The notes under the pieces were generated by a model. The model did not search any database and was not told the origin of the DNA. It saw nothing but the letters and a program-made list of their open reading frames with translations. This document shows, piece after piece, positions 754 through 50,456 of a stretch of DNA of 64,000 nt (positions are counted from its first letter, which is position 1; the number at the start of each line of letters is the position of its first letter). The DNA is from Bacteroidales bacterium (lineage in GTDB: Bacteria; Bacteroidota; Bacteroidia; Bacteroidales; WCHB1-69), in assembly GCA_017650305.1 (NCBI GenBank), contig JAGCFD010000035.1, positions 92,205 to 156,204 of the forward strand, given 5' to 3'. Made by a program: the position numbers and the translations under genes.

Positions 754-2168
754 CAGAACCGGAAATAGATAAATGGGTTAAAGTCCGAGACCGCGAGTGC
801 ACCAACAGACAGGAAAAACACAATGAGCGATGTTGCAAAAAGAATGATGGAAGAAACCTTGGAGGTGGCGTCGTTGAAAAACAATCCCATCCATTTGTCG
901 CCGAACTTCAGGGCAGGCAAGAAGGAGAAAAGGATGGCCAATGCGAAAAACAGTTGGCCTTGATTCGAAACGGTGGCGCTATCGCCAGGGCGGAATGCGA
1001 ACAACGCCTGATAATAGTCAAGGGCCCCGCTGACCGTGTCAGCGCGAAAGATTACCCATCCCAACACAACCACTAGGAAAGTGAGTAGGATGGATGGATA
1101 CCGACCGACTTTTTTCAGTACATCCAGCATAAAGAGCCGATCCAATATTAGGAACGTGCCATGAAAAACACCCCATAACACGAAGTTCCAGGATGCACCA
1201 TGCCATAAACCAGAAATCAGGAATACGAGCCATAAGTTGAAAAAGGTGCGACCTTTGGATATCCGATTTCCACCCAGCGGGATGTAGAGATACTCTTTCA
1301 TGAACCCACCCAAAGTGATGTGCCAACGCCGCCAGAACTCGCTGATACTTTGGCTGATATATGGAACGTTGAAGTTCTCGCTGAAACGAAAGCCTAACAT
1401 TCTGCCAATGCCGATGGCCATGTCTGAATAACCAGAAAAGTCAAAATAGATCTGGAAAGTGTATGCGAGGATTCCAATCCAGGCTGTGCCCGATGACATG
1501 GTCTGGAAATTCATGGCGAACACCTCATCGGCCAAAATGCCCAGTGTGTTGGCTATCAGAACTTTCTTCCCTAATCCAGTGGTGAAACGTCGAAACCCTT
1601 CCACTCTGCCAGCTATGGGAATCTCTCTTTCTACAAGTTGCTCTGCAATGGTGTTGTATCGGATGATAGGACCGGCAATCAGTTGCGGGAAGAGGGAGAT
1701 GTAGAGCATGTAATCATACCAACGCTGCAAAGGCTCTGATACCTTGCGATAAACATCTACAGTATAGCTGATAGATTGAAATGTGAAGAAGGAAATGCCG
1801 ATAGGGAGAGCTATCCGGGCGAATTGTAGTGTGGGGTGGTGCGTTATGTCTAGCAGTGCATTCAAGTTGTCCATGAAGAAGTTCATGTACTTGAAATATC
1901 CTAGCAGACCTATATTCAGAATTAACGATAAAGTAAGCCAAATTTTCCTCGGTTTTGCCTCAATGGTGTCGTGCATTTTCCTTGTGATTAGAAAATTGCA
2001 AACCATTGAAATAATAAAGATGAGAAAAAAGTCGGGTGCGCCCCATGCATAAAATGCCAAGGATGCAATTAGCAGCACGAAGTTCTTAGCCCCTTTAGGT
2101 ACTATATAATATATCAATAGCACGACAGGGAGGAAGTAAAAAAGGAATTCTATGCTACTAAAAACCAT
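753..2168 (-). CDS. MBOAT-family membrane O-acyltransferase (AlgI/DltB/PatA-like)
   Basis: 471-aa ORF with an ATG start. The N-terminus MVFSSIEFLFYFLPVVLLIYY..., the polytopic membrane profile and the ...FWRRWHITLGGFMKEYLYIPLGGNR...GLWHGASWNF... block are typical of AlgI/DltB MBOAT proteins. Confidence 0.9.
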   Translation of the reverse strand: MVFSSIEFLFYFLPVVLLIYYIVPKGAKNFVLLIASLAFYAWGAPDFFLIFIISMVCNFLITRKMHDTIEAKPRKIWLTLSLILNIGLLGYFKYMNFFMDNLNALLDITHHPTLQFARIALPIGISFFTFQSISYTVDVYRKVSEPLQRWYDYMLYISLFPQLIAGPIIRYNTIAEQLVEREIPIAGRVEGFRRFTTGLGKKVLIANTLGILADEVFAMNFQTMSSGTAWIGILAYTFQIYFDFSGYSDMAIGIGRMLGFRFSENFNVPYISQSISEFWRRWHITLGGFMKEYLYIPLGGNRISKGRTFFNLWLVFLISGLWHGASWNFVLWGVFHGTFLILDRLFMLDVLKKVGRYPSILLTFLVVVLGWVIFRADTVSGALDYYQALFAFRPGDSATVSNQGQLFFALAILFSFLPALKFGDKWMGLFFNDATSKVSSIILFATSLIVFFLSVGALAVSDFNPFIYFRF

Positions 2169-2228
2169 TGCCGAGAAATCAATTCTTCAATTCAGTTGGG
2201 ATCTTAATATCCCTTTTCATATTTGGTG

Positions 2229-2236
2229 CAAAAATA
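2229..2236 (-). promoter_or_regulatory. Bacteroidetes -7 promoter box (TATTTTTG) for the MBOAT operon
   Basis: Reverse strand reads TATTTTTG, matching TAnnTTTG, 61 nt upstream of the ATG at 2168. Confidence 0.4.
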
Positions 2237-2322
2237 CAAAAAATATTTGCGTAGAAAGAATAGTGAAAACTCTTCCTCAATATGCTAATGGCGCATTCGC
2301 CTATACAGACCAAATATTTTAC

Positions 2323-2330
2323 TATCTTTG
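2323..2330 (+). promoter_or_regulatory. Bacteroidetes -7 promoter box (TATCTTTG) for the hemolysin-III gene
   Basis: TATCTTTG lies 24 nt upstream of the ATG at 2354 and inside the longer 2282 ORF. This argues for the 2354 start. Confidence 0.45.
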
Positions 2331-2353
2331 CCCATTCAAAAATCTTGAATATA

Positions 2354-3031
2354 ATGCCTCTAAAAAGAACTCCATTGTCCGAAAGGCCCTTGCCTAATTA
2401 CTCCCATAAGGAAGAAATGATGAATATGTATAGTCATCTTTTCGGTGTGTTATGTGCACTGGTGATGTTGGGAATAGCCATTGTCGCCGCCCGCCAAAAC
2501 CCGCAACCATACGCGATGGCAAGTGGCGTGGTGTATGTGTTGTCTGTCTTGGCGATGTTTGTCGCTTCAAGTAGTTATCACGGTCTTCCCAAAGGATTGC
2601 CCAAACAGATAATGCGTGTCGTGGACCATTGTATTATCTTCATAACCATTGCGGGCACATATACTCCCATAACATTGTTGGGAATCAGGCAAGTTAACCC
2701 GACAATGGCGTGGTCTATTTTAGCTGTCGAATGGGGACTGGCTGTCATCGGGGTCATACTGAATGCCATAGACCTAAATAGGTATTCTAAAATTTCTATG
2801 GCTTGCTATTTAGGAATGGGTTGGTGTGTTATCATCAGTCTTAAACCGGCGATACAAGCGATGACACTCCCCGGATTCATGTGGATCTTGGGCGGCGGTA
2901 TCGCCTACACAATCGGAGCGATACTGTATAATGTTGGCAAGAAAAAACCCTTCAGACATGCTGTATTTCACATCTTTGTCCTGCTGGGTGTGTTGATACA
3001 GTTTGTCGGAGTGTGGAAATATCTTCTATAG
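2354..3031 (+). CDS. Hemolysin III / PAQR-family membrane protein
   Basis: The ORF 2282..3031 contains ...SHKEEMMNMYSHLFG..., ...SSSYHGLP..., ...VDHCIIFITIAGTYTPI... and a seven-TM profile. I prefer the Met25 start (2354) because of the promoter box at 2323 and the typical family length of about 225 aa. Confidence 0.85.
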   Translation: MPLKRTPLSERPLPNYSHKEEMMNMYSHLFGVLCALVMLGIAIVAARQNPQPYAMASGVVYVLSVLAMFVASSSYHGLPKGLPKQIMRVVDHCIIFITIAGTYTPITLLGIRQVNPTMAWSILAVEWGLAVIGVILNAIDLNRYSKISMACYLGMGWCVIISLKPAIQAMTLPGFMWILGGGIAYTIGAILYNVGKKKPFRHAVFHIFVLLGVLIQFVGVWKYLL

Positions 3032-3037
3032 AGAAGG

Positions 3038-4018
3038 TTATTCTTCGGTTGGCAGCGCCTTGAAGCCCTGCCCCATGATTTCGGCACTGTCAATCAGATT
3101 GACGAAGGCGGTGGGGTCAATGCGGTGGAGGTTGTCTTTCAATTTCACCAAGTCTGCACGGTCGAGCGAAACATAGATCATGTTGCGCTCTGCTCCAGCA
3201 TAGAGCCCTTTCCCTACAAACAGAGTGCCGCCCCGTTTCATCTCATGGATGACAAACTCACGCATTTCCTCCACATTGTTGGTGACAATGAAGGCTGTTT
3301 TGTAGGACTTGAATCCCTCCACAATAAGGTCTATTATCTTTCCCTCGATATAAATCAAGAGGATAGAGTAGATGGGCAACCGAAACTGTTTGAAGGCGAT
3401 GAGTGTAGTGAGCGTGATGATAGAATCCACCACCATGACCAATGTTCCTAAAGAGATCTTGGTGTACTTGTGGATAATCATTGAAATAATGTCGCTGCCT
3501 CCTGAGGTTGCGCCAGATTTGAAGATCAGACCGATGGCGATACCGTAGATGAGACCTGCCACTACCGTATTTAGAAAATAGTCGGGCATAAAGAACATTT
3601 CACTGTGGGGGATTTGCACCATGTTGGGCAAATGCTCGGAGGCAGAAACAATACCTTCGTGAATGACAGGATTGTATCCCCAAAAAGTCTCTATTATCCA
3701 AGTGAAAGCGAAAATCATGATGGTGGAAAGCACGGTCTTGAATCCGAATTTAGGCCCTAAAATCCAAGTGCCGATAAGTAGCAAAGGGATGTCCATACAG
3801 ATGGCGTAATAACTGATTTTCCAAGGCCAAACAGTGTTCAGGACGTTAGACAGACCATAGGTTCCACCAGGAGCCAAGAGATATGGGTTGACAAACATGA
3901 CGTCACCAACTGCAAAAAGGAAACTTCCTGCAACAAGCATTAAGTATGCGATGATCAAGTCTTTTGCTTTGTTTTTTCGCTCCATTGTATTTTCGTTTTT
4001 GAGACTGCGAAAATACAT
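3038..4018 (-). CDS. YitT-family membrane protein (DUF2179 C-terminal domain)
   Basis: 326-aa ORF with ...LAPGGTYGLSNVL..., ...SGATSGGSDIISMIIHK... and a C-terminal soluble domain ...FIVTNNVEEMREFVIHEMKRGGTLF.... An alternative start at 3985 (MERKNK...) is equally plausible. Confidence 0.8.
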   Translation of the reverse strand: MYFRSLKNENTMERKNKAKDLIIAYLMLVAGSFLFAVGDVMFVNPYLLAPGGTYGLSNVLNTVWPWKISYYAICMDIPLLLIGTWILGPKFGFKTVLSTIMIFAFTWIIETFWGYNPVIHEGIVSASEHLPNMVQIPHSEMFFMPDYFLNTVVAGLIYGIAIGLIFKSGATSGGSDIISMIIHKYTKISLGTLVMVVDSIITLTTLIAFKQFRLPIYSILLIYIEGKIIDLIVEGFKSYKTAFIVTNNVEEMREFVIHEMKRGGTLFVGKGLYAGAERNMIYVSLDRADLVKLKDNLHRIDPTAFVNLIDSAEIMGQGFKALPTEE

Positions 4019-33968: not shown

Positions 33969-35651
33969 TTATCTGTGGCCGCCTCCACTGTGAGAGGAGG
34001 AACTGCTGCTGTGAGAAGAGCTGCTGTGAGAAGATCCGCTATAGCTGCTTCTTGAGCTTGAGGAGGATCCGCTGTAACTGCTTCTGGAGGAAGAACTGCT
34101 GGGTGAATAGCTGCTGCGAGAGCTGGAGGAAGAACTACTCGGCGTATAGCTATTGCGCGAGCTGGAAGAAGAACTGTTATAGCTGCCTCTTGAGGATGAC
34201 GAGCTGCTTGGCGTATAGCTGCTGCGAGAGCTCGAGGAAGAATTGTTGTAACTATTTCTTGAAGATGACGAGCTGCCAGACGAGTAGTTGCTGTTGGAGT
34301 TGGATGAGCTGCTTGGAGCGTAACCGCTTCTGTAGTTGGAAGATGAACTGCTATTGCTGGTCGGCGTTGGTCTGGATGTTGAAGTTCTGGTACTTCCATC
34401 AGACGATCTGATAATAGTAGTCGTTGCCGGTCTGCTGGTGCTCGTGGAAGCTGGTCTGCTTGTAGATTGCGGGGCAGGTGTTGAGGTTCTGGACGGAGTG
34501 GTGGTAGTAGTGGGAGTGGTTGTCCTGGCCGGAGTGGTAGTTGTCGTGCTAGTTCTTGACGGGGTCGTTGATGTTGGAGTCGTTGTTCTGGACGTAGTAG
34601 AGGTAGTAGTGGTTGTTCTGGCCGGAGTGGTGGTAGTTGTGGTCGTCCTTGAAGGAGTGATCGCAGGAGTGCTGGTGGTACGTGCGGGAACAGAGGGGGT
34701 TACGTCTGTTCTGGCAGGGGTGGCGCTGTGAGTACTGGTGGTGCCAGCGTCAGTGCGTGTCGTTGCGGAAGATCCACTTGCACTGTATGATGCGGCCATC
34801 GTCTGATATTGTTGGTTGAACGAAGCTGGTGAACTAACCGTAGAGTAGTGGTTGTTGTTGTCGTTGTTGATATAGTTGGATGTTAGTAAGTTATGATCCA
34901 GATCCTTTTCGCGGTTGCGACCATTGCCTACGGACGGTCCGATGCTTTCGCGGTGACCATAGTGGAAGGTGTTGTTCTGATCGTGGTTGTTGTGATACCA
35001 GTTGCTTGCCCAGTGGCCTCCCGAATGGTTCCAGTAGTCGTAGGGTCCGAAGTGGCCATGATGATGGTGCCACGGGTGGAAATGATGGTAGTGGAATGGG
35101 TCATAGTAGCCCCAGCCCCAGCCATAATTGAAGCCCCAGTAGTTGTAGCCATAGTAGTATGGACGCACATAATAGCTTGGCCACCACCAATTGTAGCCTA
35201 AATAGATGCTGTATCCCCAGTTGTAAGGGTTGTAATCATACCAATAAGTGTTGGTAAACCAAGGGTCGTAATACCCCCACCCACAGTACAGGTTTGTATG
35301 GAATCTGCGGAGACGTGAGGTGTAATAATAGTCGTAATAATCATCGTCAGAATAAGAACTGGTGAAATTATAATTTTTGGTTTCCGCAACGTAATTGGTG
35401 ATGACCGGCTCGCTTTGGCCCGGGTAGAAGGTCTGTGTTCTCAGCAAGTTCCCGTCTTCATCGTATTCGTAAACGATGGAGTCGGGCTGCAGCTCCGTGG
35501 TTTTTGCGGTGGTCTGAGACACGGTTGCAGCCTTGTATTGGGTGTCTCCTGAAGAGGAGTAGACATCATCGTAGAAGGCATAATTGCCTGTCATACAAGA
35601 TGAAAGGAGTAATGCCATAAAGGTTGCTGCGATAAGAAATTGTTTTTTCAT
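33969..35651 (-). CDS. Lipoprotein of extreme composition (Tyr/Trp/His block, Thr/Pro/Arg block, Ser-rich SSSSSRxSY repeats), gene 1 of the operon
   Basis: 560 aa with an ATG start. Signal MKKQFLIAATFMALLLSSC (Cys19 as the lipidation candidate). See findings for block coordinates. Confidence 0.75.
   Translation of the reverse strand: MKKQFLIAATFMALLLSSCMTGNYAFYDDVYSSSGDTQYKAATVSQTTAKTTELQPDSIVYEYDEDGNLLRTQTFYPGQSEPVITNYVAETKNYNFTSSYSDDDYYDYYYTSRLRRFHTNLYCGWGYYDPWFTNTYWYDYNPYNWGYSIYLGYNWWWPSYYVRPYYYGYNYWGFNYGWGWGYYDPFHYHHFHPWHHHHGHFGPYDYWNHSGGHWASNWYHNNHDQNNTFHYGHRESIGPSVGNGRNREKDLDHNLLTSNYINNDNNNHYSTVSSPASFNQQYQTMAASYSASGSSATTRTDAGTTSTHSATPARTDVTPSVPARTTSTPAITPSRTTTTTTTPARTTTTTSTTSRTTTPTSTTPSRTSTTTTTPARTTTPTTTTTPSRTSTPAPQSTSRPASTSTSRPATTTIIRSSDGSTRTSTSRPTPTSNSSSSSNYRSGYAPSSSSNSNSNYSSGSSSSSRNSYNNSSSSSRSSYTPSSSSSSRGSYNSSSSSSRNSYTPSSSSSSSRSSYSPSSSSSRSSYSGSSSSSRSSYSGSSHSSSSHSSSSSSHSGGGHR
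33972..34355 (-). repeat. Degenerate coding tandem repeat encoding about ten (S)5-7-R-(N/S/G)-S-Y units
   Basis: aa 433-560 read ...SSSSSRNSYNNSSSSSRSSYTPSSSSSSRGSYNSSSSSSRNSYTPSSSSSSSRSSYSPSSSSSRSSYSGSSSSSRSSYSGSSHSSSSHSSSSSSHSGGGHR. All six Ser codon types are mixed, so the DNA repeat is imperfect. Confidence 0.75.
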
Positions 35652-38066: not shown

Positions 38067-39992
38067 ATGAATAATAAAATAATAGTATATATAATATTAT
38101 TGTTATTTTGTGCAATTCCAACAAGCCTTTCCTCGCAGAAGCGTTCCAAGGCTGCTGATTTGTGTGATAAAGCGGAAAAGTCGCTCAACCAACGGGACTT
38201 TGACAAGGCGTTGTCATACTTGAAGCAGGCTGCGCAAAAAGATCCTTCTTATGCGGACACCTATATTTTGATGGGTGATGCTTATAACTTCACCTTGAAG
38301 TCTGATTCTGCAGCTGCATGTTATGATCGTGCCATCAAGTTGATTGGTGATCCGGATCCGTTATTGTACAATATTGCCGCTTCCGAGTATGTGAAGTGTG
38401 GAAAGTACGAGAATGCTTACCGCTATTACGACTTGTTTCTTCAGAAAGGACTTCAATATACGGAGGTGCTTACGGAGGCTCAGAGGGGCATGGCCAATTG
38501 CAAGTTCGCGATAGAGGCCATGAAGTCTCCGGTGGATTATGAGCTTAAAAATATGGGTCCAAATATCAATTCGGCATGGGATGAGTCGTTGGCTGCACTG
38601 ACTGCTGACGATGAGACTATCATCTTCACGGTTCGGCGACCGAAAGATGCGCATACCGTTTGTGCATTTTGTATGAATGAGGAGGATCTCTATAGTTCTG
38701 AATGTAAAGGTGGGGTGTGGGCATCTCGTCAGGTGTTGGCTGCTCCTGTTACGACTGGTTACAATGAGGGGGCCCAGAGTATCTCCCCCGATGGCAACTA
38801 TCTTCTATATACCATGTGCAATGCTGACTACGGAATTGGCAGTTGCGACCTTTATTGGGCAAAGAGGATAGGGGACAGATGGTCGAGACCACGTAACTTT
38901 GGTACCCCCGTTAACTCTGGGGCTTGGGAGAGCCAGCCCTCTATGGCGGCCGATGGGATGACAATCTATTTTGCTTCTTCCCGCCCTGGCGGATTCGGAG
39001 GTATGGATATCTGGAAAACCACGATGACATCCGAGGGTGCCTTTACAGCACCGGAGAACTTGGGCGCTACCATCAACACTCCGGAAGATGATGCTGCGCC
39101 GTTCATCCACAGTGACGGACATACACTCTACTTTGCCTCCAATGGGAGAATCGGCATGGGTGGCTATGACCTTTATTATTCCACTTTGCAGCCCGATGGC
39201 TCTTGGAGCGAGCCTCAGAACCTTGGCTATCCTGTCAACACCTGGAATGATGAGGTGAATATCTTCATCAATGCTCAAGGCACCACTGCCTATATCGCTT
39301 CTGACAAGTCTGGTGGCTATGGTGGTTTGGATTTGTACAGTTTCGCGCTGGATGACAACCTTCGTCCCAGTCCTGTAACATATATTAAAGGTAAAGTCAC
39401 GGATGCAATCACGGGCGAACCGCTCCGCGCAGAGATTCAGATGATCGACTTGGAGAGCCGTCAATTGCTGACGGGTACCACTTCTGATGAAGAGACGGGA
39501 GAGTATCTTGCCTGTGTTCATACGGGGAAGAATGTCCTGTTGAATGTATCCCGTACAGGTTATCCGTTCTACTCTGAGAATTTCCAAGTGGAAGAGACGT
39601 ATACCCATTTGAAACCATACGTAAAGGATATTGCGCTGCAGCCTGCCGAAGTAGGAACTGTTGTTGTGTTGAACAATATCTTCTTTGATTTTGACAGAAG
39701 TGATCTCAAAACAGAGTCCTATGTAGAACTTGACCGTCTTGTGGACTACCTCAGTCACAATCGCATTCGTATAGAGATTGGAGGGCATACAGACAATACG
39801 GGTACCAGTGACTATAACGAGAAGCTTTCTCGGGACCGTGCGAAGTCGGTTTATGACTATCTCGTAGCCCATGGAATTGCAGAATCTCGTCTTTCTTATC
39901 GCGGTTATGGCATGCAAAAACCTATTGCCAGCAACGACACAGAGGAAGGCAGGGCAAAAAACAGAAGAACAGAGTTCACAATTATTCAATAG
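38067..39992 (+). CDS. porE: PorE-like T9SS-associated protein: TPR + PD40/TolB-type beta-propeller + carboxypeptidase-regulatory-like domain + OmpA_C peptidoglycan-binding domain
   Basis: 641 aa with a signal peptide. TPR region (...DFDKALSYLKQAAQKDPSYADTYILMGDAY...). Five PD40-like blades (...NLGATINTPEDDAAPFIHSDGHTLYFAS...GGYDLYYS...). CRD-like ...IKGKVTDAITGEPL.... OmpA_C ...NIFFDFDRSDL...GHTDNTGTSDYNEKLSRDRAKSV...NRRTEF.... This four-domain order matches that described for P. gingivalis PorE (PG1058). Confidence 0.6.
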   Translation: MNNKIIVYIILLLFCAIPTSLSSQKRSKAADLCDKAEKSLNQRDFDKALSYLKQAAQKDPSYADTYILMGDAYNFTLKSDSAAACYDRAIKLIGDPDPLLYNIAASEYVKCGKYENAYRYYDLFLQKGLQYTEVLTEAQRGMANCKFAIEAMKSPVDYELKNMGPNINSAWDESLAALTADDETIIFTVRRPKDAHTVCAFCMNEEDLYSSECKGGVWASRQVLAAPVTTGYNEGAQSISPDGNYLLYTMCNADYGIGSCDLYWAKRIGDRWSRPRNFGTPVNSGAWESQPSMAADGMTIYFASSRPGGFGGMDIWKTTMTSEGAFTAPENLGATINTPEDDAAPFIHSDGHTLYFASNGRIGMGGYDLYYSTLQPDGSWSEPQNLGYPVNTWNDEVNIFINAQGTTAYIASDKSGGYGGLDLYSFALDDNLRPSPVTYIKGKVTDAITGEPLRAEIQMIDLESRQLLTGTTSDEETGEYLACVHTGKNVLLNVSRTGYPFYSENFQVEETYTHLKPYVKDIALQPAEVGTVVVLNNIFFDFDRSDLKTESYVELDRLVDYLSHNRIRIEIGGHTDNTGTSDYNEKLSRDRAKSVYDYLVAHGIAESRLSYRGYGMQKPIASNDTEEGRAKNRRTEFTIIQ

Positions 39993-40271: not shown

Positions 40272-43200
40272 ATGAAAAAATTATTATCAATTTGCTTTTT
40301 AAGCATTCTGCTGGCGTTTCTGAGCTTCACAGCTCAAGCGCAGACAACACAATCATGCTGCTTCTGGCTGGAGAATCTCCAACCACAGACATTGCATGAT
40401 ATTGCCAATGTCCCTGGCGGTGGCGCTGCTCATCTGCCTGGCACAGGTGGCGATGTTGTGTTGAACAACACCATGAATCCGGTGTTGCATGGTATTGACA
40501 CTGTTACCGGTCAATGTCAACAGACGGACTATTACAGGATTCGCTTTGCGAACACTTGCAATCTTCCTGCTGGCACGAAAGTGTCTATCGAATGGAAGTT
40601 GTATCGTGACGGCGAGCTTGTAAACGGCAATCTTTCCGATTATGCCGATTTCCGCATTTACACTCGGTACCAGAGACTGCACAACAACCCCGATCCCCTG
40701 ACTGCTGGTCAAGCAGGCTGTGCAACTATTCCATGGCTTGGTGGTCGTGTGGCTGAACATTTGGGCGGCTGTTTCGAGACGAACAATCATGTTACTGGTC
40801 TTGATTATTCAGTTGCTGGTTATCCTGGTTCTTTCCAGGTAGAACCGCTGCCTTATGATTTTGCGAATACCTCTTTTGGAGCAAATGGTTCCATCTTTAT
40901 TGCCAATGAAATGGCTTTGGATTACTTCAATCTGAACTTCTTTGAATCCACGGATCATGTAATTGTTATTTGCTGGAAACAAGTTGGTAACTATTCTTTG
41001 GTTGTTGGTCTGCGCGAGCGTTTGTTCGGTACAGACTGGCCGACTCTTTATTGGACTGATGAGAATGACAACCCGATGGGTTCCATTGGTGGTCACGAGA
41101 GCCACTGTGGCGCACTCCTTGCTCAAGACTCTATCCACTATCTTGTAGAGACTACTTATGACAAAGCTGTTTGTGACGGTCAAACTTGGGACTTCGGTAG
41201 CCCTACCGCCACCTTCTCTGTTGAGAATCCTTACCTTGTTATCTTTGGTGACTCCGTTTGCGGTCATTTCAGAGTTGACAGCTTAGTACACCTCAACTTC
41301 TACACTCGTATCAATCCTGATATCGTAGCTAATGACTTTGACATTTGCGTCGGCCTTCCGTTGCCTGCTTCTGAAGTTGCTTCCCATACACCTGCTGTGA
41401 ACACCGATGCTCCTGGCATTATCGACTATGCTATTTGGTGGTCTCAAGATGGCAACACCTGGGATACCATCACTCCGAGCTACAATGCTGTTCAAGTTGG
41501 TACCTATACTTGGTATGTGAAACAAATCAACCACTACGATGCTGTTACCCCGGACGATTTCTATTGCGAGGGTGCTATCGATACTTTGACCATCACCGTG
41601 AAACCGCTTTACGCTCCTGTAATTGCTACTCACGAGTCTGAATGGTGTTATAACGATCTGCCTGCTGCTCTCAACCTCAAGGCTTCCTATGATCCTAACG
41701 AGGAATGTGCCACTGGCATCGTTTGGTCTTACAATGGCGTTTCTCTCGACACTGTAGCAAGTGGTGAGAATATCTCTTTGATTTTGGCTGAGTATTTCCC
41801 GACCAATATCAATAAGACTGTCAATTTGATCGCTTACACCACCAACGGTTATGCCAACTCTCCTGAAGTTACCGTTACCTTGACGGTTCATGCTTCTCCC
41901 GTACCGACTGGCACCGTTGCTGATGCTACCTATACTTTGTGCCCGAGCACTACGCAAAACTTGACCACCGATTTCACAGATTCCAACGTTGGTCAAACGC
42001 ACAGCACCGCTACTTATGTTTGGACTTTGAATGGTCAAGTTATTCCTGGTGCTAATGCTTCCAGTTATATGGGAACTACCCCGGCTACTTGTACCGGTTC
42101 TAACGTTTATGTTGTTACCGCTACTTTCACCAGCGATGCTGGTTGTGCCGAGACTATCTCCCGCAAGTACACGTTGACCGTCCAAAGCGAAGGTGTTATC
42201 ACCGTTACGCCGAAGACCACGACAAAGACTGAGTTCACCATTTCCGGTTGTGACACCACCGTTGCTGAGTTTGTTAACGGTCGTCGTACTCTTGCCGATT
42301 TGATGAGCTTGCTCAATGTTACCTATCCTTGCAGCGCTCCTGTAAGTGTGACCTATAACGCTACTATCGTCTCTTCTTCACTTTGCCAGACTGTGGTTAC
42401 CAGAAGCTACATCCTCAACGATGCTTGCGACAACCACTCTAACGCTTTCGTGGAGACCTGGACTATCAATAATGACTATAGACCTGTTATCTCCGGTACT
42501 TCTTCTATGAATTTCGTCCGCATCCAAGATTGTAAGTACGAAGTTCCTGCTCAACAAGTACTGGTTGATTCCTTCTTGTTGCACAACACAGTTACATTCC
42601 AATGCAACGGTGGTTCTGTAACCTCCTACGCTTTCTATTTGGATGCTGCGGCTACTGTATCCGCTCCTGGTCACCTGATCTTTGAGAATCCGACTACCAT
42701 GGTTCATAATATCTATGCAGTTGTGACTGATGCTTGTGGTAACAAGTCTGTTCCTACGCTTGTTTTCACCATCCAACGTCCTGCTCCTATGACTATCGAC
42801 GGTGGTATTTTGGCTCTTCCGCCGGATATCTGTTTGCATGACACTGTTTTCTTGTCCTTCGACGTTGCTCACATCCTCAATGCTACTCCGCTTGTGAACG
42901 CCAATAATGAAGAGTACTATATCCTTGAGTGGACTGCCAATCCTAACGATGGTAGTATCATTTTCCATACCAGTCCTAATGCTCTCGGTGTTCCTGCATC
43001 TCCTAATACTGACTATGTATATACTATGACCGCTACTGATTTCTACGGTTGTAAAGCTTCTATCAGCGCTAACCCTGTTCATGTACACGGTCTTCCTACA
43101 GTAGAAGTTGAAGAGATTATCCTCAACGGTTCTACCTTCCCGCTTTGCCCGAACTATGGTAACCTTACCATTCACTCCATCACTACTCCTGGTAACGGTG

Positions 43201-46200
43201 GTACTATCGTATCCCACACTTGGAGCGGTGAGAGTGTGAACCTCCCTGTTGAGGTCAATATGGACACCACTTTCGTTGCCATTCTTCCGGATAGCTGCAA
43301 CAAGACTTATACTGCTTTCTTGACCGTTGCTAACAATGACGGCTGTTTGGCTTCCACATCTTATTCTTTCGACGTGGTTGATACTACTGCTCCTGTTGTT
43401 AACGGTGTTCCGACCGAGCTCATCCTCGATCCTACTACCAATTGTAAACTTCAAGTTCCGAACTTGAAACTCTTATTCAACAGCAACAACCTTACCGATA
43501 ACTGCTACGGTTTTGGCAACCTCACTATTAACCAGAGCATCGCTGCCGGTTCTATGGTGGATGGTGGCACTGACGTGACCATGACCATTACCGACCGCTG
43601 CGGTAACGCTACCACTCATGTTATCACCCTCAACTCCAGCGCTCCGCTCGCAGTTTCAATCACTGCTGACAAGATGGAGATTTGCCAAGGTGAGTCTGTT
43701 AATTTGACCACTACTGTTGAAAATGAGATTATTCCTGTTATCTACACTTGGAATACTGGTTCTCACAATGCCAACGTCACGGTTAATCCGACCGAGACCG
43801 CTCATATCTACACGGTTTCTGTTACCGACGCTATCGGTTGTACCGCTAAGGCTAACATCGACATTCTTGTTCATCATACTCCTGTTGCCGCTGACGCTAC
43901 TTTGCATCAGACTCCTAACACCTACTGTCAGAATGCAGACGGTATCTATGATGGTACTATTTCCATCACTGCTAACCACGCTGACATCTCTGCTTATAGA
44001 ATGAATGGCGAGTATGAGTGGAAAGACCTCACTTATGTTTACACCGGTTTGCAAGAAGGTACCTATTACTTCGACCTTTTGACTGCTTATGATTGTGAGA
44101 CTGACAATGTAATCAGCATCACCGTTGGTCGCGATACCAATGTTGTGGTTCCTGTTACCACTACTACTCCTAACGCATGGTGTGTTGCTCCGTTCGACGG
44201 TTCCATCACCATCACCAATCCTCAGGTTGGTTATACCTATGAGATCATCAACCTCCCGAACTCTGATGTTACTTACGTAAGTGGCGATATGATTTATGAC
44301 AATCTTGAGTATGGTCACTATTCTATCCACGTAACTACTGACAAATATTGTCAATATGTGAAAGAAGACATTATTGTTGACAGCACACGTGTTTATCCTG
44401 TTGTTATTGCAACTACCACTCCTAAGACCCGTTGCGACGAGCCCGATGGTACTATCACTGTTACCAACCCTGTTGCTGGTTACACCTACACTATCGGTCA
44501 GACCACCTACACTGGTGCTCCTGCCGTATTCACTGGCCTTAACAGTGGTTCTTACACTTTGACTGCTGTAACTGATTTTGGCTGTACGAAGAACTTCTAC
44601 ATCAATGTTACTTCTACTACAGAAGATCCTACAGAGCCTGTCACCACTATTGCTAACAACACTGTATGTGACCTTTATATTACTCCTAACGGTACGATCA
44701 CCGTTAATGCTCCTATCGCTGGTTACTCCTATACTTTGAATAATGAGACTGTTGTTTCTGACGGTACTCCGATCGTCTTTGACGAGCTCGGTGAGCATGG
44801 CGCTGACGCCATCTACACCTTGACGGTTCTCTCCAACCTCGGTTGTTCTTCTAACTTCGACCTCACTGTTCCGAACGTTCCGATTTATCCTACCTTCGGC
44901 ACAAACGAGATCACCGTTACTCACAACACCAATTGCGACGGTACCACTCCTAACGGTGCTATTTCTATCGCTCAAGTAGCTGGTTACACCTATGTAGTTT
45001 ATCAAATGGTTGATATCGCCGGTGTTTCCACTCCTGTTCTCATGACCTCTACTGACAACCTCCCTGCTGGCTTCTACAAGATCGTTAAGATTGAGAATGC
45101 TACTGGCTGTCAGAAAGAGACGACTGTTGAAATTAAATTCAACAAGCCTGTTTATACTTGGGATATTACTTCTACTAAGGATCAGAACTGCGATCCTACA
45201 GAAGGTAATGGTACCATTACGATTAATGGTGTTACTACCAACTACATATTCACCTTGTTGAATGCATCTAACGACATCGTTGCTGTTAATCCTACTGGTG
45301 CATTCACGAACCTGAATGGTGTTGCTACTTACACAGTGAATGCATATAACACTGTTACTTCTTGTAGCTACACAAAGAATGTAACCATTACTACCAACTT
45401 TGTTTATCCTACCCTTACTGCTAATGGTACTGCTAACCATAACTGTAAGGACGAGAAGGACGGTACAATCACTGTTACCAATGCTGGTGCTGCTGTAATG
45501 CCGATTACCTACATCTTGGTTTCTGGTGGTGTTGCTCTTGACACTAATACTACTGGCGTATTCAACGCTGTTGACAGCGGTGCTTACACTATCAACGCTA
45601 TCAGTGCAATGAACTGTGCTTCCACTATTAACTACAATGTTGTGGACAGCGCTTTCTTGCCTACTCTCGTAATGCATGCAACTCCTAACACAATGTGTGC
45701 TCCTACATTCGAGAAACCGGGTAACGGTACTATCGTAGTTACAGCTCCTATGGATACCAACTATGTATACTATTTCGAGAATGCTTCTGCTCCTAACGTT
45801 TTGGATACTGTTGGTTACTTCACTCCTGATTCTTATGTGATGTACTGGTTGATGACCGACCACTACACAGTTCACGTATTTGATCCTCAAACGGGTTGTG
45901 CTCTTGATGGTGATATCGACGTTCCTCATGCTGACGTAACGGTTAATTTCACTCCTGAAATCACAGCTAACGTTAATTGTGAAGCTCCTTACACTGGTGT
46001 TATTATTCTGAACGCTACCAGCGAGAATCCGGACGCTGACTTCGTTTATTCTATCGATGGTGTCAACTATGGCAGCAACAATATGTTCCAACAACTTGCT
46101 ACCGGCACCTATACAATCTATGTGAAAGACCTCGATCTTGGTTGTAGCTATACTGCTACTAACATTGTTGTTCCGAACAACAATATCTACAAGCCTATCA

Positions 46201-49200
46201 TTGACATTGCTGGTGACACTGTTTACTGTCTCAACTCTATCGGTGAGCTGATCGCTTCTGCTACCAGCACTCTCGAGGGCGACACTGTATTCACATATTC
46301 TTGGTACTCTGTATGTACTGGCACAACGCCTGGTCCTGTTCAACCTATCTACACTGGACACACTGGCATGTGTACCTATTACATTACTGTCGTGAGCGAA
46401 CTCACAGGTTGTGTTACTATCGACTCTATCAGAGTTCATGTTGAGCCGAACCCGATCATCACCTTCTTGATTGACAATGTGGCTACCGCTCTCGATGAGA
46501 TTAACATTTGTCACAACGACTTCCCGATTAACCTCGGTGTTGATCCTACCAACCTGACTGATTTCTTGTGGTCTAACCACGAGACTCACTCCAACTTCGA
46601 CATTACATTGCCGAATGGTAACTACTGCTTCTTCACTGTAACGGTTACTGACGTTTACGGTTGTCAGAATGTTGACTCTATCGGTGTCTTCTCTATGCCG
46701 ACCTATGCTTATGCAGTTGAAGATAACATCTGTGTTACCCCTGCCGCTTTCGCCGCTTTGGCCGAGACTGATGCTACCGTTCATAATACACGTCCTACTT
46801 CTCATCCTGCTAAACATTATAGCTGGCTGCAGAAAGAGCAGACTATTTATGGTTGCGACAGTATCATTACACACAATGTGACGATTTCTACAGATCCTAT
46901 TGTTACCTTGAATGCTAATATTACTACTACTTATTGTGCTGGAGATGCTTTCGCAAACTTCACATTCAATGTAGTCGATAACAATAGCCCGATTATCGCT
47001 CTAGGTTGGCAGATCAACGATAATGGTACTTGGACCTTCCTCAATGTTAATAATCCTGTATCCTTCGACATGAACGGCAAACAAGTTCGTGCTTTCGCCA
47101 CTAACGATTGTGGTACCACTTATGCTACTACAACTCTTGTTGTGAATGACATCCCGACTATCGTTGCTCTCGGCGGTCTTTCCACCACTCAATTCTGTGC
47201 TGGTGAGAAGGTTTATACTAAGGTTCCGACTCCTGCTTATACCTGTAACCACACTGAAGGTTGCGATACCGCTTGGGTTTACTCTGCTTCTCAAAATGGT
47301 CCTTGGACTCCGATCGCCAACGATGCTGTAACTGCAGCTATGAACAATGGTTATGTTGCATTCCAAGTTACTAACGGTTGCGGTTCTAACGTTTCTGTTC
47401 CTGTCCAAATTATTGTGGATGTTGTTCCTGCCGGTACTATTGATCCGGTTACCATTTGTAAGGGTACTGAACTCACGACGAATGCTAACTCTCTTAACCT
47501 GACTTGGACTGCTGGCCATACCACTACTGCTGGTCCTTTCACCACTGAAATTATGCCTACCAATGCTCCTACTGCTACTGGTAGCATCTATGTTGCTCTT
47601 ACCAACAAGTGCGGTACTACCAACACCAATACCGTTACGGTTACGGTTAACGACAAGCCTTCTATGGGTCAACTTGCCCAGACTGGTACTTGTGTTGAGA
47701 ACTTCTCTCTTGCTATCCCGACTGTAACCTGGAATGGTAGCACTGGTACTGCTACGCTGCAAATCAGCAATAACGGTACTTCTGGTTGGACCAACACCAC
47801 CGTTGCCGCTCTTGCTAACCTCAGCAACAATGGCAAGTATGTACGTTACTCCGCTACTAACAATTGCGGTACGACTAATTCTAATGTTATCCAATTGTCT
47901 GTTACCGACAATCCTACCGTTACTTTGACAGTTAATGATAACGCTGTTTGCCAAGGTGAGACGGTTACTTTGACGGCTACTCCTAACTGGCATAATGCTA
48001 CCGGTACTATCACTTATAAGATGAGCACCAATGGTACAACTTACACTAACCTCACTTCCAATGTTGTGACTATGAATACTCCGGGAACTATCTACTTCAA
48101 GGCTGTCGCCATGAACGATTGTGCTCCTAATGGAGTTGAATCCAATGTAGTTACCGTTACCGTTGAGGCTACTCCTACTTTGACGCTCTCTACCAACGAG
48201 GTTACTCTTTGTAATAATGAAAATACTCCTTATACTATCGACGTTACTACCAATAAGGTTGTCACGCTCTCTAACAATCCTACCTGGGTTGCCTTGAATG
48301 CTGACAATGATATTGTGATTACTCCGAACACATCCATTGCTTATGGTGATTATACCTTCTCCATTACTACTACCACTACCGATTGTGATGCTCTCACTCA
48401 AACTGTGACTGTTCACATGCGCGCTTTGCCTGTTATCAGCTCTTTCTCTGTGGCTGAAAACTACTACTGCGTTGATGATCACATTGCTGATTATAACTAC
48501 AGCATCACATGGAATGCTACTTCCAATACTTCTACTGCTATTACTGCTCTCCATGGCACTTCTGAAAGTAGTATTACCTTCCCGCACCTCGTTACGTTGG
48601 CCGACACCAACCTGAGACTCAAACTCTCTGCTACCAACGACTGCGGTACGGTGACCAGCATTATCAATGTAAATGTGGTTGCTCCTGTTGCCTTGAATAT
48701 CACGGGTGTTGACACCTGCTCTGGTATGCCTGTCTGCAACTTCGTGGCTGCTCCTTCCTACACCACTTATGGTGCTACCACAGTTTCTGCTGAGGGTTGG
48801 ATCGTAGATGGTACAAAGAGAGCTTCTACTTACCAATTGGCTGCTGGTGATCATACAGTTCAATACTATGTGACCACTCAATGTGGTGACAATGTTTCCA
48901 ACTCTGTCAATGTACACGCTTTTGCCGAGCCTACTATTACCACTACAGCTACCTTCGTAATTTGTGATGGTGATCAGTTGACTAAACCGACTGCTCCTCA
49001 ATTGACTTATGATCTTGATGGTGCTACCCTCGTTTCCGAGACTTGGACTATCACTCCTGTTAACGGTACTCCTGAGACTATCGATTGGAACAAGAACTAT
49101 GATGTGACTTATAATAATGCAACCATTACCTACACTGTAACTACTGGTTGTACCTCCACATCTAATACTTGGCCTCTTACAGTACATGAGCTTCCTGTTC

Positions 49201-50456
49201 CTGTGATTCTCCAAGACACTATTATTTGTCACGATGGTTCTACCACTTTGAGCCTCTCTGAGTCTTACGTTACTTATCAATGGTATCAAGATGGTACTGC
49301 AATCTCTGGTGCTACCAATGCTACTTACACTGTTGATGCTTCTACGCTCGCAGCTGAGGATGCATTCTACGCATACACTGTTGTTGTTACCGATGCTAAT
49401 GGTTGTACTTCCAGTACTTCAACCAATGGTTCATTCCAGGCTCTTGATCCTAATGCTGTGATGATTCAAGTGACCAATGCTCCGAGATTCATCTTCAAGT
49501 ACAACGGCAACGAGACTCATTACATCAATGGTATCAACACCATTGATCCTTCTGATCCTACTACTTTGAACAACAACCTCGTATTCACTTGGGAAGTTGA
49601 GAATCCTTGTTACAATGATGACACGTTGGTTTATGTCACCTTCGACATCTATCACAATGACACATTGATTGACAACAACACTATTGGTAATTACTTGACC
49701 AACACTAATATTCCTGGTTCTTATACTGAATTCTGGAATACTTCTATCGCATTCCCGTTTGAGTATGGTGGAGCTGCTAATCACACTACTGTAAATACTC
49801 TCACTCGTTACAACAAAGCTTCGGCTAATGCTACTGGATCTTATCAAAACCACTTCCCGTACTCTACGTTCTTCGCTGGTGGTTCTTCCTTTGATGATGT
49901 TTATCTGCACTTCCTCGCTAACAACGTTTACACTCAGACTGTACGTCCGTTCAGAATCCCGGGTGAGTACAAGATCATCTACACCATCTACTCTACCAGC
50001 AATACTGACGCTTATGCTTATCCTTACTTCAATGGTACGGAAGACAAGATTATCGGCGGTTATAACTCTTTGGTTTCTTCGGCTATCAAGAGCATGCTTG
50101 CTATGGACTCTATCATGATCACCGTTGACGGTCAAGCTGTTTCTGTGGCCATGACTCCGGAAGCTCCTACGGCTGCTCCTATGACTCCGATCTATAACGA
50201 TCAACCTACCTTGAAGATCTACCCGAACCCGACTTCCAATGAGGTTAATGCTGAAATCGTTGGCTTGACTGGTGAGACCACCATCCAAATTGTCAACCTG
50301 ACTGGTTCAGTACTTGCTTCTGAAAAGGTTAACATCCCTGCTACTGCTACTTACACTTATCGTAGCTCTGCAGCTAACCTGGCTCCTGGCATCTACTTCA
50401 TGTACATCATCAATGATAATGCCACATTGTCTAAGAAGTTGGTTGTTAAACGCTAA
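40272..50456 (+). CDS. Giant (3,394 aa) T9SS-secreted cell-surface repeat protein / putative adhesin
   Basis: Single uninterrupted 10,185-nt ORF with an ATG start. Signal peptide MKKLLSICFLSILLAFLSFTAQAQ. HYR/Ig-like units carry ...TDACGN..., ...ITDRCGN... signatures. It also has a SprB-type repeat array, a second Ig-like array and a T9SS CTD. It has its own promoter box and terminator. Confidence 0.9.
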   Translation: MKKLLSICFLSILLAFLSFTAQAQTTQSCCFWLENLQPQTLHDIANVPGGGAAHLPGTGGDVVLNNTMNPVLHGIDTVTGQCQQTDYYRIRFANTCNLPAGTKVSIEWKLYRDGELVNGNLSDYADFRIYTRYQRLHNNPDPLTAGQAGCATIPWLGGRVAEHLGGCFETNNHVTGLDYSVAGYPGSFQVEPLPYDFANTSFGANGSIFIANEMALDYFNLNFFESTDHVIVICWKQVGNYSLVVGLRERLFGTDWPTLYWTDENDNPMGSIGGHESHCGALLAQDSIHYLVETTYDKAVCDGQTWDFGSPTATFSVENPYLVIFGDSVCGHFRVDSLVHLNFYTRINPDIVANDFDICVGLPLPASEVASHTPAVNTDAPGIIDYAIWWSQDGNTWDTITPSYNAVQVGTYTWYVKQINHYDAVTPDDFYCEGAIDTLTITVKPLYAPVIATHESEWCYNDLPAALNLKASYDPNEECATGIVWSYNGVSLDTVASGENISLILAEYFPTNINKTVNLIAYTTNGYANSPEVTVTLTVHASPVPTGTVADATYTLCPSTTQNLTTDFTDSNVGQTHSTATYVWTLNGQVIPGANASSYMGTTPATCTGSNVYVVTATFTSDAGCAETISRKYTLTVQSEGVITVTPKTTTKTEFTISGCDTTVAEFVNGRRTLADLMSLLNVTYPCSAPVSVTYNATIVSSSLCQTVVTRSYILNDACDNHSNAFVETWTINNDYRPVISGTSSMNFVRIQDCKYEVPAQQVLVDSFLLHNTVTFQCNGGSVTSYAFYLDAAATVSAPGHLIFENPTTMVHNIYAVVTDACGNKSVPTLVFTIQRPAPMTIDGGILALPPDICLHDTVFLSFDVAHILNATPLVNANNEEYYILEWTANPNDGSIIFHTSPNALGVPASPNTDYVYTMTATDFYGCKASISANPVHVHGLPTVEVEEIILNGSTFPLCPNYGNLTIHSITTPGNGGTIVSHTWSGESVNLPVEVNMDTTFVAILPDSCNKTYTAFLTVANNDGCLASTSYSFDVVDTTAPVVNGVPTELILDPTTNCKLQVPNLKLLFNSNNLTDNCYGFGNLTINQSIAAGSMVDGGTDVTMTITDRCGNATTHVITLNSSAPLAVSITADKMEICQGESVNLTTTVENEIIPVIYTWNTGSHNANVTVNPTETAHIYTVSVTDAIGCTAKANIDILVHHTPVAADATLHQTPNTYCQNADGIYDGTISITANHADISAYRMNGEYEWKDLTYVYTGLQEGTYYFDLLTAYDCETDNVISITVGRDTNVVVPVTTTTPNAWCVAPFDGSITITNPQVGYTYEIINLPNSDVTYVSGDMIYDNLEYGHYSIHVTTDKYCQYVKEDIIVDSTRVYPVVIATTTPKTRCDEPDGTITVTNPVAGYTYTIGQTTYTGAPAVFTGLNSGSYTLTAVTDFGCTKNFYINVTSTTEDPTEPVTTIANNTVCDLYITPNGTITVNAPIAGYSYTLNNETVVSDGTPIVFDELGEHGADAIYTLTVLSNLGCSSNFDLTVPNVPIYPTFGTNEITVTHNTNCDGTTPNGAISIAQVAGYTYVVYQMVDIAGVSTPVLMTSTDNLPAGFYKIVKIENATGCQKETTVEIKFNKPVYTWDITSTKDQNCDPTEGNGTITINGVTTNYIFTLLNASNDIVAVNPTGAFTNLNGVATYTVNAYNTVTSCSYTKNVTITTNFVYPTLTANGTANHNCKDEKDGTITVTNAGAAVMPITYILVSGGVALDTNTTGVFNAVDSGAYTINAISAMNCASTINYNVVDSAFLPTLVMHATPNTMCAPTFEKPGNGTIVVTAPMDTNYVYYFENASAPNVLDTVGYFTPDSYVMYWLMTDHYTVHVFDPQTGCALDGDIDVPHADVTVNFTPEITANVNCEAPYTGVIILNATSENPDADFVYSIDGVNYGSNNMFQQLATGTYTIYVKDLDLGCSYTATNIVVPNNNIYKPIIDIAGDTVYCLNSIGELIASATSTLEGDTVFTYSWYSVCTGTTPGPVQPIYTGHTGMCTYYITVVSELTGCVTIDSIRVHVEPNPIITFLIDNVATALDEINICHNDFPINLGVDPTNLTDFLWSNHETHSNFDITLPNGNYCFFTVTVTDVYGCQNVDSIGVFSMPTYAYAVEDNICVTPAAFAALAETDATVHNTRPTSHPAKHYSWLQKEQTIYGCDSIITHNVTISTDPIVTLNANITTTYCAGDAFANFTFNVVDNNSPIIALGWQINDNGTWTFLNVNNPVSFDMNGKQVRAFATNDCGTTYATTTLVVNDIPTIVALGGLSTTQFCAGEKVYTKVPTPAYTCNHTEGCDTAWVYSASQNGPWTPIANDAVTAAMNNGYVAFQVTNGCGSNVSVPVQIIVDVVPAGTIDPVTICKGTELTTNANSLNLTWTAGHTTTAGPFTTEIMPTNAPTATGSIYVALTNKCGTTNTNTVTVTVNDKPSMGQLAQTGTCVENFSLAIPTVTWNGSTGTATLQISNNGTSGWTNTTVAALANLSNNGKYVRYSATNNCGTTNSNVIQLSVTDNPTVTLTVNDNAVCQGETVTLTATPNWHNATGTITYKMSTNGTTYTNLTSNVVTMNTPGTIYFKAVAMNDCAPNGVESNVVTVTVEATPTLTLSTNEVTLCNNENTPYTIDVTTNKVVTLSNNPTWVALNADNDIVITPNTSIAYGDYTFSITTTTTDCDALTQTVTVHMRALPVISSFSVAENYYCVDDHIADYNYSITWNATSNTSTAITALHGTSESSITFPHLVTLADTNLRLKLSATNDCGTVTSIINVNVVAPVALNITGVDTCSGMPVCNFVAAPSYTTYGATTVSAEGWIVDGTKRASTYQLAAGDHTVQYYVTTQCGDNVSNSVNVHAFAEPTITTTATFVICDGDQLTKPTAPQLTYDLDGATLVSETWTITPVNGTPETIDWNKNYDVTYNNATITYTVTTGCTSTSNTWPLTVHELPVPVILQDTIICHDGSTTLSLSESYVTYQWYQDGTAISGATNATYTVDASTLAAEDAFYAYTVVVTDANGCTSSTSTNGSFQALDPNAVMIQVTNAPRFIFKYNGNETHYINGINTIDPSDPTTLNNNLVFTWEVENPCYNDDTLVYVTFDIYHNDTLIDNNTIGNYLTNTNIPGSYTEFWNTSIAFPFEYGGAANHTTVNTLTRYNKASANATGSYQNHFPYSTFFAGGSSFDDVYLHFLANNVYTQTVRPFRIPGEYKIIYTIYSTSNTDAYAYPYFNGTEDKIIGGYNSLVSSAIKSMLAMDSIMITVDGQAVSVAMTPEAPTAAPMTPIYNDQPTLKIYPNPTSNEVNAEIVGLTGETTIQIVNLTGSVLASEKVNIPATATYTYRSSAANLAPGIYFMYIINDNATLSKKLVVKR
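43900..46180 (+). repeat. Array of nine SprB-type repeats (78-94 aa each) within the giant gene
   Basis: Units start at conserved Cys codons at 43926, 44181, 44433, 44667, 44934, 45189, 45444, 45696 and 45978. Pattern: C-x(2-9)-(D/N)G-(T/S/A)-I-(T/S)-(V/I)-(T/N)...Y-x-(Y/F)...L-x-x-G-x-Y...C. Example: CDEPDGTITVTNPVAGYTYTIGQTTYTGAPAVFTGLNSGSYTLTAVTDFGCTKNFYINV. Confidence 0.7.
46881..49440 (+). repeat. Array of about ten Ig-like units (about 85-90 aa), each ending in a (T/S)(T/N)x-C-G-x-x-x-S-x-x-V signature
   Basis: Unit ends: ...FATNDCGTTYATTTLVVNDIPT, ...VTNGCGSNVSVPVQIIV, ...LTNKCGTTNTNTVTVTVNDKPS, ...SATNNCGTTNSNVIQLSVTDNPT, ...AMNDCAPNGVESNVVTVTVE, ...TTTDCDALTQTVTVHM, ...SATNDCGTVTSIINVNVV, ...VTTQCGDNVSNSVNVHAF, ...VTTGCTSTSNTWPLTVHE, ...VTDANGCTSSTST. 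Confidence 0.65.
50211..50453 (+). other. T9SS type-A C-terminal sorting domain of the giant protein
   Basis: The last 81 aa read LKIYPNPTSNEVNAEIVGLTGETTIQIVNLTGSVLASEKVNIPATATYTYRSSAANLAPGIYFMYIINDNATLSKKLVVKR. Confidence 0.8.

Follow-up and report, generated by a model that had tools for sequence, protein, structure and literature searches.

Paralogous copies of a new beta-sandwich domain at the two ends of a giant, predicted type IX-secreted protein of uncultured Bacteroidales

The giant open reading frame (ORF) described here runs from 40272 to 50456 on the forward strand of a 64,000-nucleotide stretch of the Bacteroidales contig JAGCFD010000035.1, hereafter called the window, and encodes a predicted secreted surface protein of 3394 amino acids (aa) in an uncultured rumen-type member of the order. 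As laid out in Table 1, a predicted Sec signal peptide is followed by an N-terminal domain, a repeat-rich rod, a C-terminal domain, a short linker and a T9SS (type IX secretion system) sorting domain, and the two domains enclosing the rod are paralogous copies, long since diverged, of a single and previously undescribed beta-sandwich domain of ~220-265 residues, referred to below as the N-type and the C-type copy. The sorting domain was recognised both by Pfam PF18962 (Por_Secre_tail, aa 3316-3392), with 35.5 bits in the whole protein and 40.8 bits in a C-terminal fragment (cut-off 27), and by NCBIfam TIGR04183 with 37.8 bits (cut-off 23). The only other signal in the Pfam scan of the whole protein was Ig_7, the CHU_C-associated Ig-like family, which fell on four stretches of the rod at 26.6 bits, just under the cut-off of 27.3 bits. 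The signal peptide was read by eye from the translation on the basis of a basic n-region, a hydrophobic core and an AQA-Q cleavage-type motif, and in the orthologues an AQ(A/S) motif is kept a few residues ahead of the first strand of the N-type copy.

Table 1. Features of the giant gene and the gene upstream of it. Mean identity is that of the window protein to 60 giant relatives, by region.
Feature	Position in window	Strand	Residues (aa)	Mean identity (%)	Basis and remarks
TPR / PD40 beta-propeller / OmpA gene, PorE- or CHU_0125-like	38067..39992	+			Pfam TPR, PD40, OmpA; immediately upstream of the giant gene
Sec signal peptide	40272..40340	+	1-23		MKKLLSICFLSILLAFLSFTAQA then QTTQ; read from translation; peptide and cleavage site predicted
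N-terminal copy of the new beta-sandwich domain (N-type)	40356..41144	+	29-291	47 (highest of all regions)	AlphaFold2 model; profile homology to C copy
Repeat-rich rod	41145..49481	+	292-3070	32	Pfam Ig_7 below cut-off
C-terminal copy of the same domain (C-type)	49482..50132	+	3071-3287	39	AlphaFold2 model; profile homology to N copy
Pro/Ala/Thr-rich linker	50133..50216	+	3288-3315	26	Joins C copy to sorting domain; read from translation
T9SS type A C-terminal sorting domain	50217..50453	+	3316-3394	42	PF18962 and TIGR04183

A preliminary description of the window had placed homologous modules at 40527-41150 and 49578-50129, which correctly translate to aa 86-293 and aa 3103-3286, and had listed four patches aligning between them in the same order. 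Compared as a raw pair, the two modules are marginally similar in BLASTP (24% identity over 201 columns, E 0.039). Word-indexed homologue searches with the single modules found one relative of the N module (P0001) and two of the C module (P0002 and P0003), a search of the same kind with a C-type profile found three relatives, and the shallow profiles made from the relatives of the two single-module searches gave an hhalign probability of 36% (P 3.9e-4). Both the BLASTP value and the 36% would suit a chance or compositional resemblance of two unrelated beta-rich segments. In the comparison with shuffled controls proposed in the preliminary description the raw pair was marginal as well: the Smith-Waterman score of 58 was reached by 2 of 2000 shuffles (33.9 ± 5.6), and the highest scores of same-length interior windows of the giant protein were 36 against the N module and 46 against the C module.

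The question of homology was settled by the 56 relatives returned by an exhaustive phmmer search, with both modules concatenated, of 1.84 billion representative proteins; about 30 of the relatives are giants of 3300-4600 aa matching in two stretches. The N and C modules were kept in strictly separate sets of 35 and 26, giving profiles of 29-35 N and 21-26 C sequences. A hidden Markov model (HMM) made only from C modules matched all 35 N modules, the best with 42.6 bits (P 3e-15) and collinear over the full length, and the N module of the window with 20.7 bits (per-sequence P 1.6e-8). Inversely, the N-only HMM matched C modules with up to 26.6 bits, and the best scores among shuffled and reversed controls (546 and 735) were 12.6 and 5.1 bits. 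In hhalign the N-only and C-only profiles aligned over 187 columns with 98.1% probability (E 6.4e-14), the alignments underlying the structure models described below, A3 (N) and A4 (C), gave 98.0% (E 1.5e-13), and the global mode gave 98.7% (E 2.2e-15) over 242 columns. Across the runs 178-242 columns were collinear, and all four patches of the preliminary description were mutually aligned. A natural bridging sequence was found in P0054, a protein with two copies, both of which are matched at the same places by the N and the C module of the window used as single-sequence queries. When 40 non-redundant giants were compared, 54% of their 1,600 N x C pairs scored above the shuffle mean plus 3 standard deviations, and the similarity thus belongs to both families and not to one sequence. 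With deep profiles at 98% (E 1e-13), controls far lower, a bridging protein and predicted secondary structures agreeing in order, chance resemblance is refuted as far as sequence statistics go and its probability is negligible. Judged from the sequence comparisons, the end modules are almost certainly homologous.

The identity between N-type and C-type copies is ~17%, and their similarity is not higher within one protein (55.9) than between proteins (57.4), which shows that the duplication is old and was followed by no homogenisation and no detectable co-adaptation. The same two values gave no sign of concerted evolution of the two copies inside one protein. No further copy was found in the interior of the window protein with N and C HMMs and filters switched off, the best internal match being 3.6 bits, which bears out the earlier remark that the end modules are unlike any internal repeat. 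Nor was any copy found among all other ORFs of the window with the module profiles.

Structure models of both ends were made with AlphaFold2, and the N model (from A3, window aa 24-325) reached a predicted local distance difference test (pLDDT) score of 80.1 and a predicted template modelling (pTM) score of 0.80, with strands from model residue 7 to 267. The C model (from A4, aa 3055-3310) reached a pLDDT of 84.6 and a pTM of 0.80. Both models are beta-rich with two short helices each, the order of strands and helices is identical between them, and the DSSP states along the global profile alignment agree for 71% of 221 aligned residues versus 39-51% in shifted registers. The early strands FWLENL (aa 30-35) and RFIFKY (aa 3072-3077), each together with the next strand, lie confidently in the fold and are mutually aligned, and the domain therefore begins earlier than first described: the earlier coordinates lie inside the domain, but they begin about 55 residues (N) and about 30 residues (C) too late. 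The refined limits given in Table 1 define module constructs of aa 24-295 and aa 3068-3290. The N copy starts ~5 residues past the predicted signal cleavage site, which puts it at the extreme tip of the predicted mature protein. Between the end of the C copy and the sorting domain lie 28 residues of linker, modelled with a pLDDT of about 60, and this is where PorU would be expected to cut if characterised type A cargo is taken as the model.

Two side observations concern this mature N-terminus. The predicted first residue is Gln (AQA-QTTQ; window 40341-40355, aa 24-28), and pyroglutamyl N-termini are frequent on secreted Bacteroidota proteins. Directly ahead of the first strand many orthologues have a CC pair (CCFW), and others have SGFW.

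The main structural difference between the two copies is located in the centre of the domain. In the N-type the centre (aa 150-213) has the conserved motifs WLGG, GxC and YPGA and a Cys-rich insert, and in the C-type a confident beta-hairpin is followed by the motif GNHFP. Further N-type motifs are WKQVGNYSLV, RERxGGTDW and IGGHQSCCG, and further C-type motifs are YDDLxLHFL, GEYKIVYRLYxTSN and IGG...LLAxDSI. What is conserved across the two types is mostly Gly and aromatic or aliphatic residues (Y, V, a D-Y/D...F helix, GxY, IGG, LAxD and V) and looks like core, and the conserved polar motifs are type-specific. Cys residues number about 7 in an N-type copy and about 1.5 in a C-type copy. The common ancestry and common order of secondary structure, together with conservation of both ends above the level of the rod (Table 1), would suit a bivalent binder in which both copies recognise one ligand, such as a glycan of plants or microbes or a surface polysaccharide of the cell itself, so that the protein would bridge two surfaces bearing the ligand or lie flat on the cell. 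This is very unlikely given the ~17% identity between the types, the conserved Cys-rich insert of one centre and the beta-hairpin of the other, and the fact that what is conserved in both looks like core and the polar motifs are not shared.

No family could be named for the modules, as the preliminary description had stated. Pfam and NCBIfam scans of the window modules gave no match, with nothing below E 0.035 in NCBIfam, the 29 N-type and 21 C-type members had no recurring family in Pfam at E<=1, and profile searches of PDB sequences with the modules gave nothing below E 0.2 (best E 0.2). In the literature on T9SS and on rumen and Bacteroidales adhesins nothing was found on this protein family. 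When the models were compared with the PDB by Foldseek, the N model had its best match at E 0.016 with query-normalised template modelling (TM) scores of at most 0.22 (ClfB, Als3, Cnm, CfaE and antibody domains), and the C model at E 3.7e-4 with TM scores of about 0.3 (<=0.31; GH123 N-terminal sandwich, AggA and PAD4 Ig-like domains). No Foldseek superposition on an MSCRAMM / DEv-IgG or fimbrial adhesin fold had a TM above 0.5, and nothing significant was found in a viral model library. The adhesin-flavoured top matches are a lead and not evidence. The matches to ClfB, or 'clumping factor', are weak and of a generic Ig-like kind, and were not used as evidence. The module is accordingly an Ig-like beta-sandwich of a new sequence family, with reciprocal profile homology between its two types, a common order of secondary structure and conserved positions in the giants.

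The distribution of the giant gene was investigated by a pattern scan of one genome per species, with a short alignment of the WKQVGNYS...IGGHQSCCG region as the probe. The 35 loci obtained are nearly all labelled as uncultured Bacteroidales or Bacteroidetes metagenome-assembled genomes, together with two labelled Oscillospiraceae and two labelled 'bacterium'. Hosts, where named, are buffalo, yak, goat or sheep (fore-stomach or gut), deer, reindeer and horse (faeces), and the closest locus, L003, is 97% identical in the probe region. The giant ORF is present in 35/35 loci, with an N-type copy at ~aa 60-340 and a C-type copy ~90-110 residues from the end in every ORF that reaches far enough. 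Taking loci and database proteins together, both copies occur in 58/61 giants and the remaining 3 run off their locus, so that the module, which the preliminary description suggested looking for in other giant Bacteroidota proteins, was indeed recovered there. The N plus C layout is a conserved feature and not an accident of one gene. Wherever the flanks are present the gene order is constant, with proS, mazG, the TPR / PD40 / OmpA gene, the giant gene, an ABC transporter and a methyltransferase, and the same downstream order in an ENA contig (L001) continues into secE-nusG-rplKAJL. As the identities in Table 1 document, the ends, and above all the N end, are more constrained than the rod.

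At L001 and at a further locus, L002, the reading frame is or may be interrupted. In L001 (ENA contig ERZ27256871) positions 1413-1415, orthologous to about 49440 of the window and just before the C module, are an in-frame TAG in place of TAC (FIFK-stop-QG versus FIFKYNG). Gene callers have split the giant at this codon, and the database protein P0003 is therefore an artificial C-terminal piece; a sequencing error and a recent nonsense mutation are the two explanations for the TAG. P0001 (L002, 1158-2240), the only relative of the N module from the word-indexed search, is 360 aa long, resembles the family for ~340 residues, then diverges and stops 84 bases short of the contig end. It is probably a frameshift or assembly artefact and not a natural short form.

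Homologous ends on a rod offer the simplest geometry for head-to-tail contact, and self-association was considered on this ground, with N and C copies binding each other within or between molecules to form head-to-tail rods, loop-backs, a surface mesh or links between cells. That both ends are better conserved than the rod, and that the layout is kept in 58/61 giants, would also agree with such contacts. On the other hand, both copies are strongly acidic, with mean net charges of -12.6 (N-type) and -15.8 (C-type), and thus have no charge complementarity, no excess of N-C similarity or co-variation was seen within a protein, the conserved polar motifs differ by type, and related proteins use the domain internally without an N-terminal copy. 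Self-association is thus quite unlikely. The more specific proposal that the N head docks on a neighbour's C base copy or on another head, so that 3,400-residue rods would be joined to a T9SS-built surface lattice or a cell-cell tether, is more doubtful still; if it is true, surface fibres of Bacteroidota would have, in the mutual docking of their ends, a new principle of assembly built on a new domain family.

The domain is not confined to orthologues of the window protein. Divergent giants (P0038, P0039, P0043 and P0046) start with a copy of the N-type and end with one of the C-type, and P0047, P0051, P0056 and P0058 contain four copies each, mostly in pairs ~180 residues apart and most of them internal. 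The earlier statement that the module caps both ends was consequently right for the layout in the 58/61 giants, but wrong if taken to mean that the module is exclusively an end cap. The four-copy proteins (loci L038 and L039) are 1700-2500 aa long, come from other metagenomes and show good conservation of the module in its second half and weak conservation in its first, and their modules look like a third subtype of the family. P0056 is a complete gene of 1713 aa without an N-terminal copy. In 7/7 non-orthologous T9SS proteins of unrelated lengths a copy ends 10-33 residues ahead of the Por_Secre_tail domain, and every family member found has a copy directly ahead of its T9SS sorting domain. 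The site before the sorting domain is the constant position of the module, and the extra copy at the mature N-terminus is special to the giant family. Its occurrence in assorted T9SS proteins marks the module as a reusable domain of T9SS cargo.

The constancy of this position, short proteins included, fits a generic spacer and agrees with a purely structural function, in which the end domains stabilise the rod or nucleate its folding and the C copy keeps the sorting domain at a distance from the rod, with no ligand bound. The lack of a significant match to any known binding domain in the searches above is in line with this. It is nevertheless unlikely that the copies are structural caps only, since the N copy is the best conserved region and has many invariant polar, aromatic and Cys residues in its loops, more than spacers usually need.

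The gene immediately upstream of the giant (Table 1) was compared over its full length with NCBIfam and scored 333 bits against CHU_0125_OmpA (cut-off 620) and 320 bits against T9SS_PorE (cut-off 600), both below cut-off. It lies next to the giant gene wherever the upstream flank is present, which is the case in all 35 loci but L024 at a contig end, with about 68-93% identity, and this pairing may reflect a link in function, or the two may simply be conserved genes in synteny. A 559-aa ORF on the reverse strand (33969-35651) adjoins proS; it has no match in Pfam or NCBIfam, and it is conserved at this position, at 39-95% identity, in those related loci that include this flank. Across the giant gene itself long antisense ORFs are found on the reverse strand (41283-50288), among them ORFs of 1072 aa at 43656-46874 and 762 aa at 47001-49289, and the GC skew goes negative over the gene. 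The antisense ORFs are most likely a by-product of biased codon use in a repeat-rich gene and not genes.

The reading preferred here is that the N copy is a putative distal binding head and the C copy a cell-proximal pedestal of one surface fibre, to which a probability of roughly 0.55 is given. Export of the giant protein by Sec would be followed by type IX secretion, the type A sorting domain would be cut off in the linker, and the new C-terminus would be fixed to surface lipopolysaccharide. In type A T9SS cargo the C-terminal end is, after removal of the sorting domain, the end fixed to the cell surface, and the same removal and anchoring in the giant would bring the C copy to the cell surface, where it would stand as a pedestal beside the cleavage and anchor site. 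The Ig-like rod of ~2,800 residues would project outward as a long spacer and carry the N copy as its distal tip. The N copy is the likeliest candidate for a functional, probably ligand-binding head because of its position at the tip, its highest conservation and its many invariant loop residues. The divergence in the central loop region and the conserved polar motifs indicate that the two copies most likely do different jobs.

Several points weigh against this head-and-pedestal arrangement. The adhesin-type fold matches (ClfB, Als3, CfaE and AggA) are not significant, which leaves position and conservation as the grounds for a binding head. The N model is of low confidence in aa 150-213 despite the conserved motifs found there. 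The identity of fold between the copies is taken from the order of secondary structure and from profile homology and not from superposed models, and surface anchoring after removal of the sorting domain is carried over by analogy from type A cargo of Porphyromonas and Tannerella.

Few gene products of gut Bacteroidota are as large, or as poorly understood, as the giant T9SS surface proteins. What is gained for them here is a domain family of ~220-265 residues with true boundaries and two subtypes, and a two-ended architecture conserved in one gene that is syntenic across at least 35 uncultured species from the gut of herbivores. Mutual binding of the ends, if it occurs, would represent a new way to build a bacterial surface layer; otherwise the family is a useful, ordinary addition to the catalogue of adhesin domains.

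Among known systems the giant protein is most readily compared with SprB of Flavobacterium johnsoniae, which likewise has several thousand residues, a Sec signal peptide (in the giant a predicted one), a long rod of Ig-like or SprB-like repeats and a T9SS C-terminal sorting domain, and which like the giant is presumed to form a cell-surface filament. The sorting domain of SprB is however of type B, whereas that of the giant is of type A (TIGR04183), and neither TIGR04131 nor PF13573 SprB repeats were found in the whole-protein Pfam and NCBIfam scans at E<=1, in which NCBIfam gave TIGR04183 only. The giant further differs from SprB in its paralogous end domains, for which Pfam and NCBIfam have no model, and in its origin from uncultured anaerobic gut Bacteroidales with no known link to motility. 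The succession of a beta-sandwich, a short linker and a type A sorting domain is the same in the immunoglobulin superfamily (IgSF) domain of RgpB from P. gingivalis and in TfsA and TfsB of the T. forsythia surface layer. The C-type module has no sequence similarity to these, measures ~220 residues as compared to ~80 for IgSF, and has a paralogue at the opposite end of the protein.

The Ig-like domains of adhesins (the MSCRAMM N2N3 region of ClfB, 3au0, and Als3, CfaE and AggA), the GH123 sandwich and the Ig-like domains of PAD4 are all beta-sandwiches like the end modules, and many of them sit at the distal tip of surface fibres. With E-values of 3.7e-4 at best, TM scores of at most 0.31 and root-mean-square deviations of 8-18 Å, the likeness to the end modules is too weak for assignment to a fold family, and the Foldseek matches give no evidence for a dock-lock-latch or donor-strand mechanism in them. 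Long rods of Ig-like repeats with specialised ends, of which one holds the cell and the other binds a ligand, are also found in the RTX adhesins MpIBP and LapA and in SiiE. These are substrates of type I secretion with mutually unrelated ends, whereas the ends of the giant are homologous, and compared with giant adhesins of other secretion systems homologous ends are thus unusual. So far no finding goes against what is ordinarily expected of modular adhesins: the class of protein, a giant T9SS surface fibre, is a familiar one, and it is the domain family and its conserved two-ended layout that are new.

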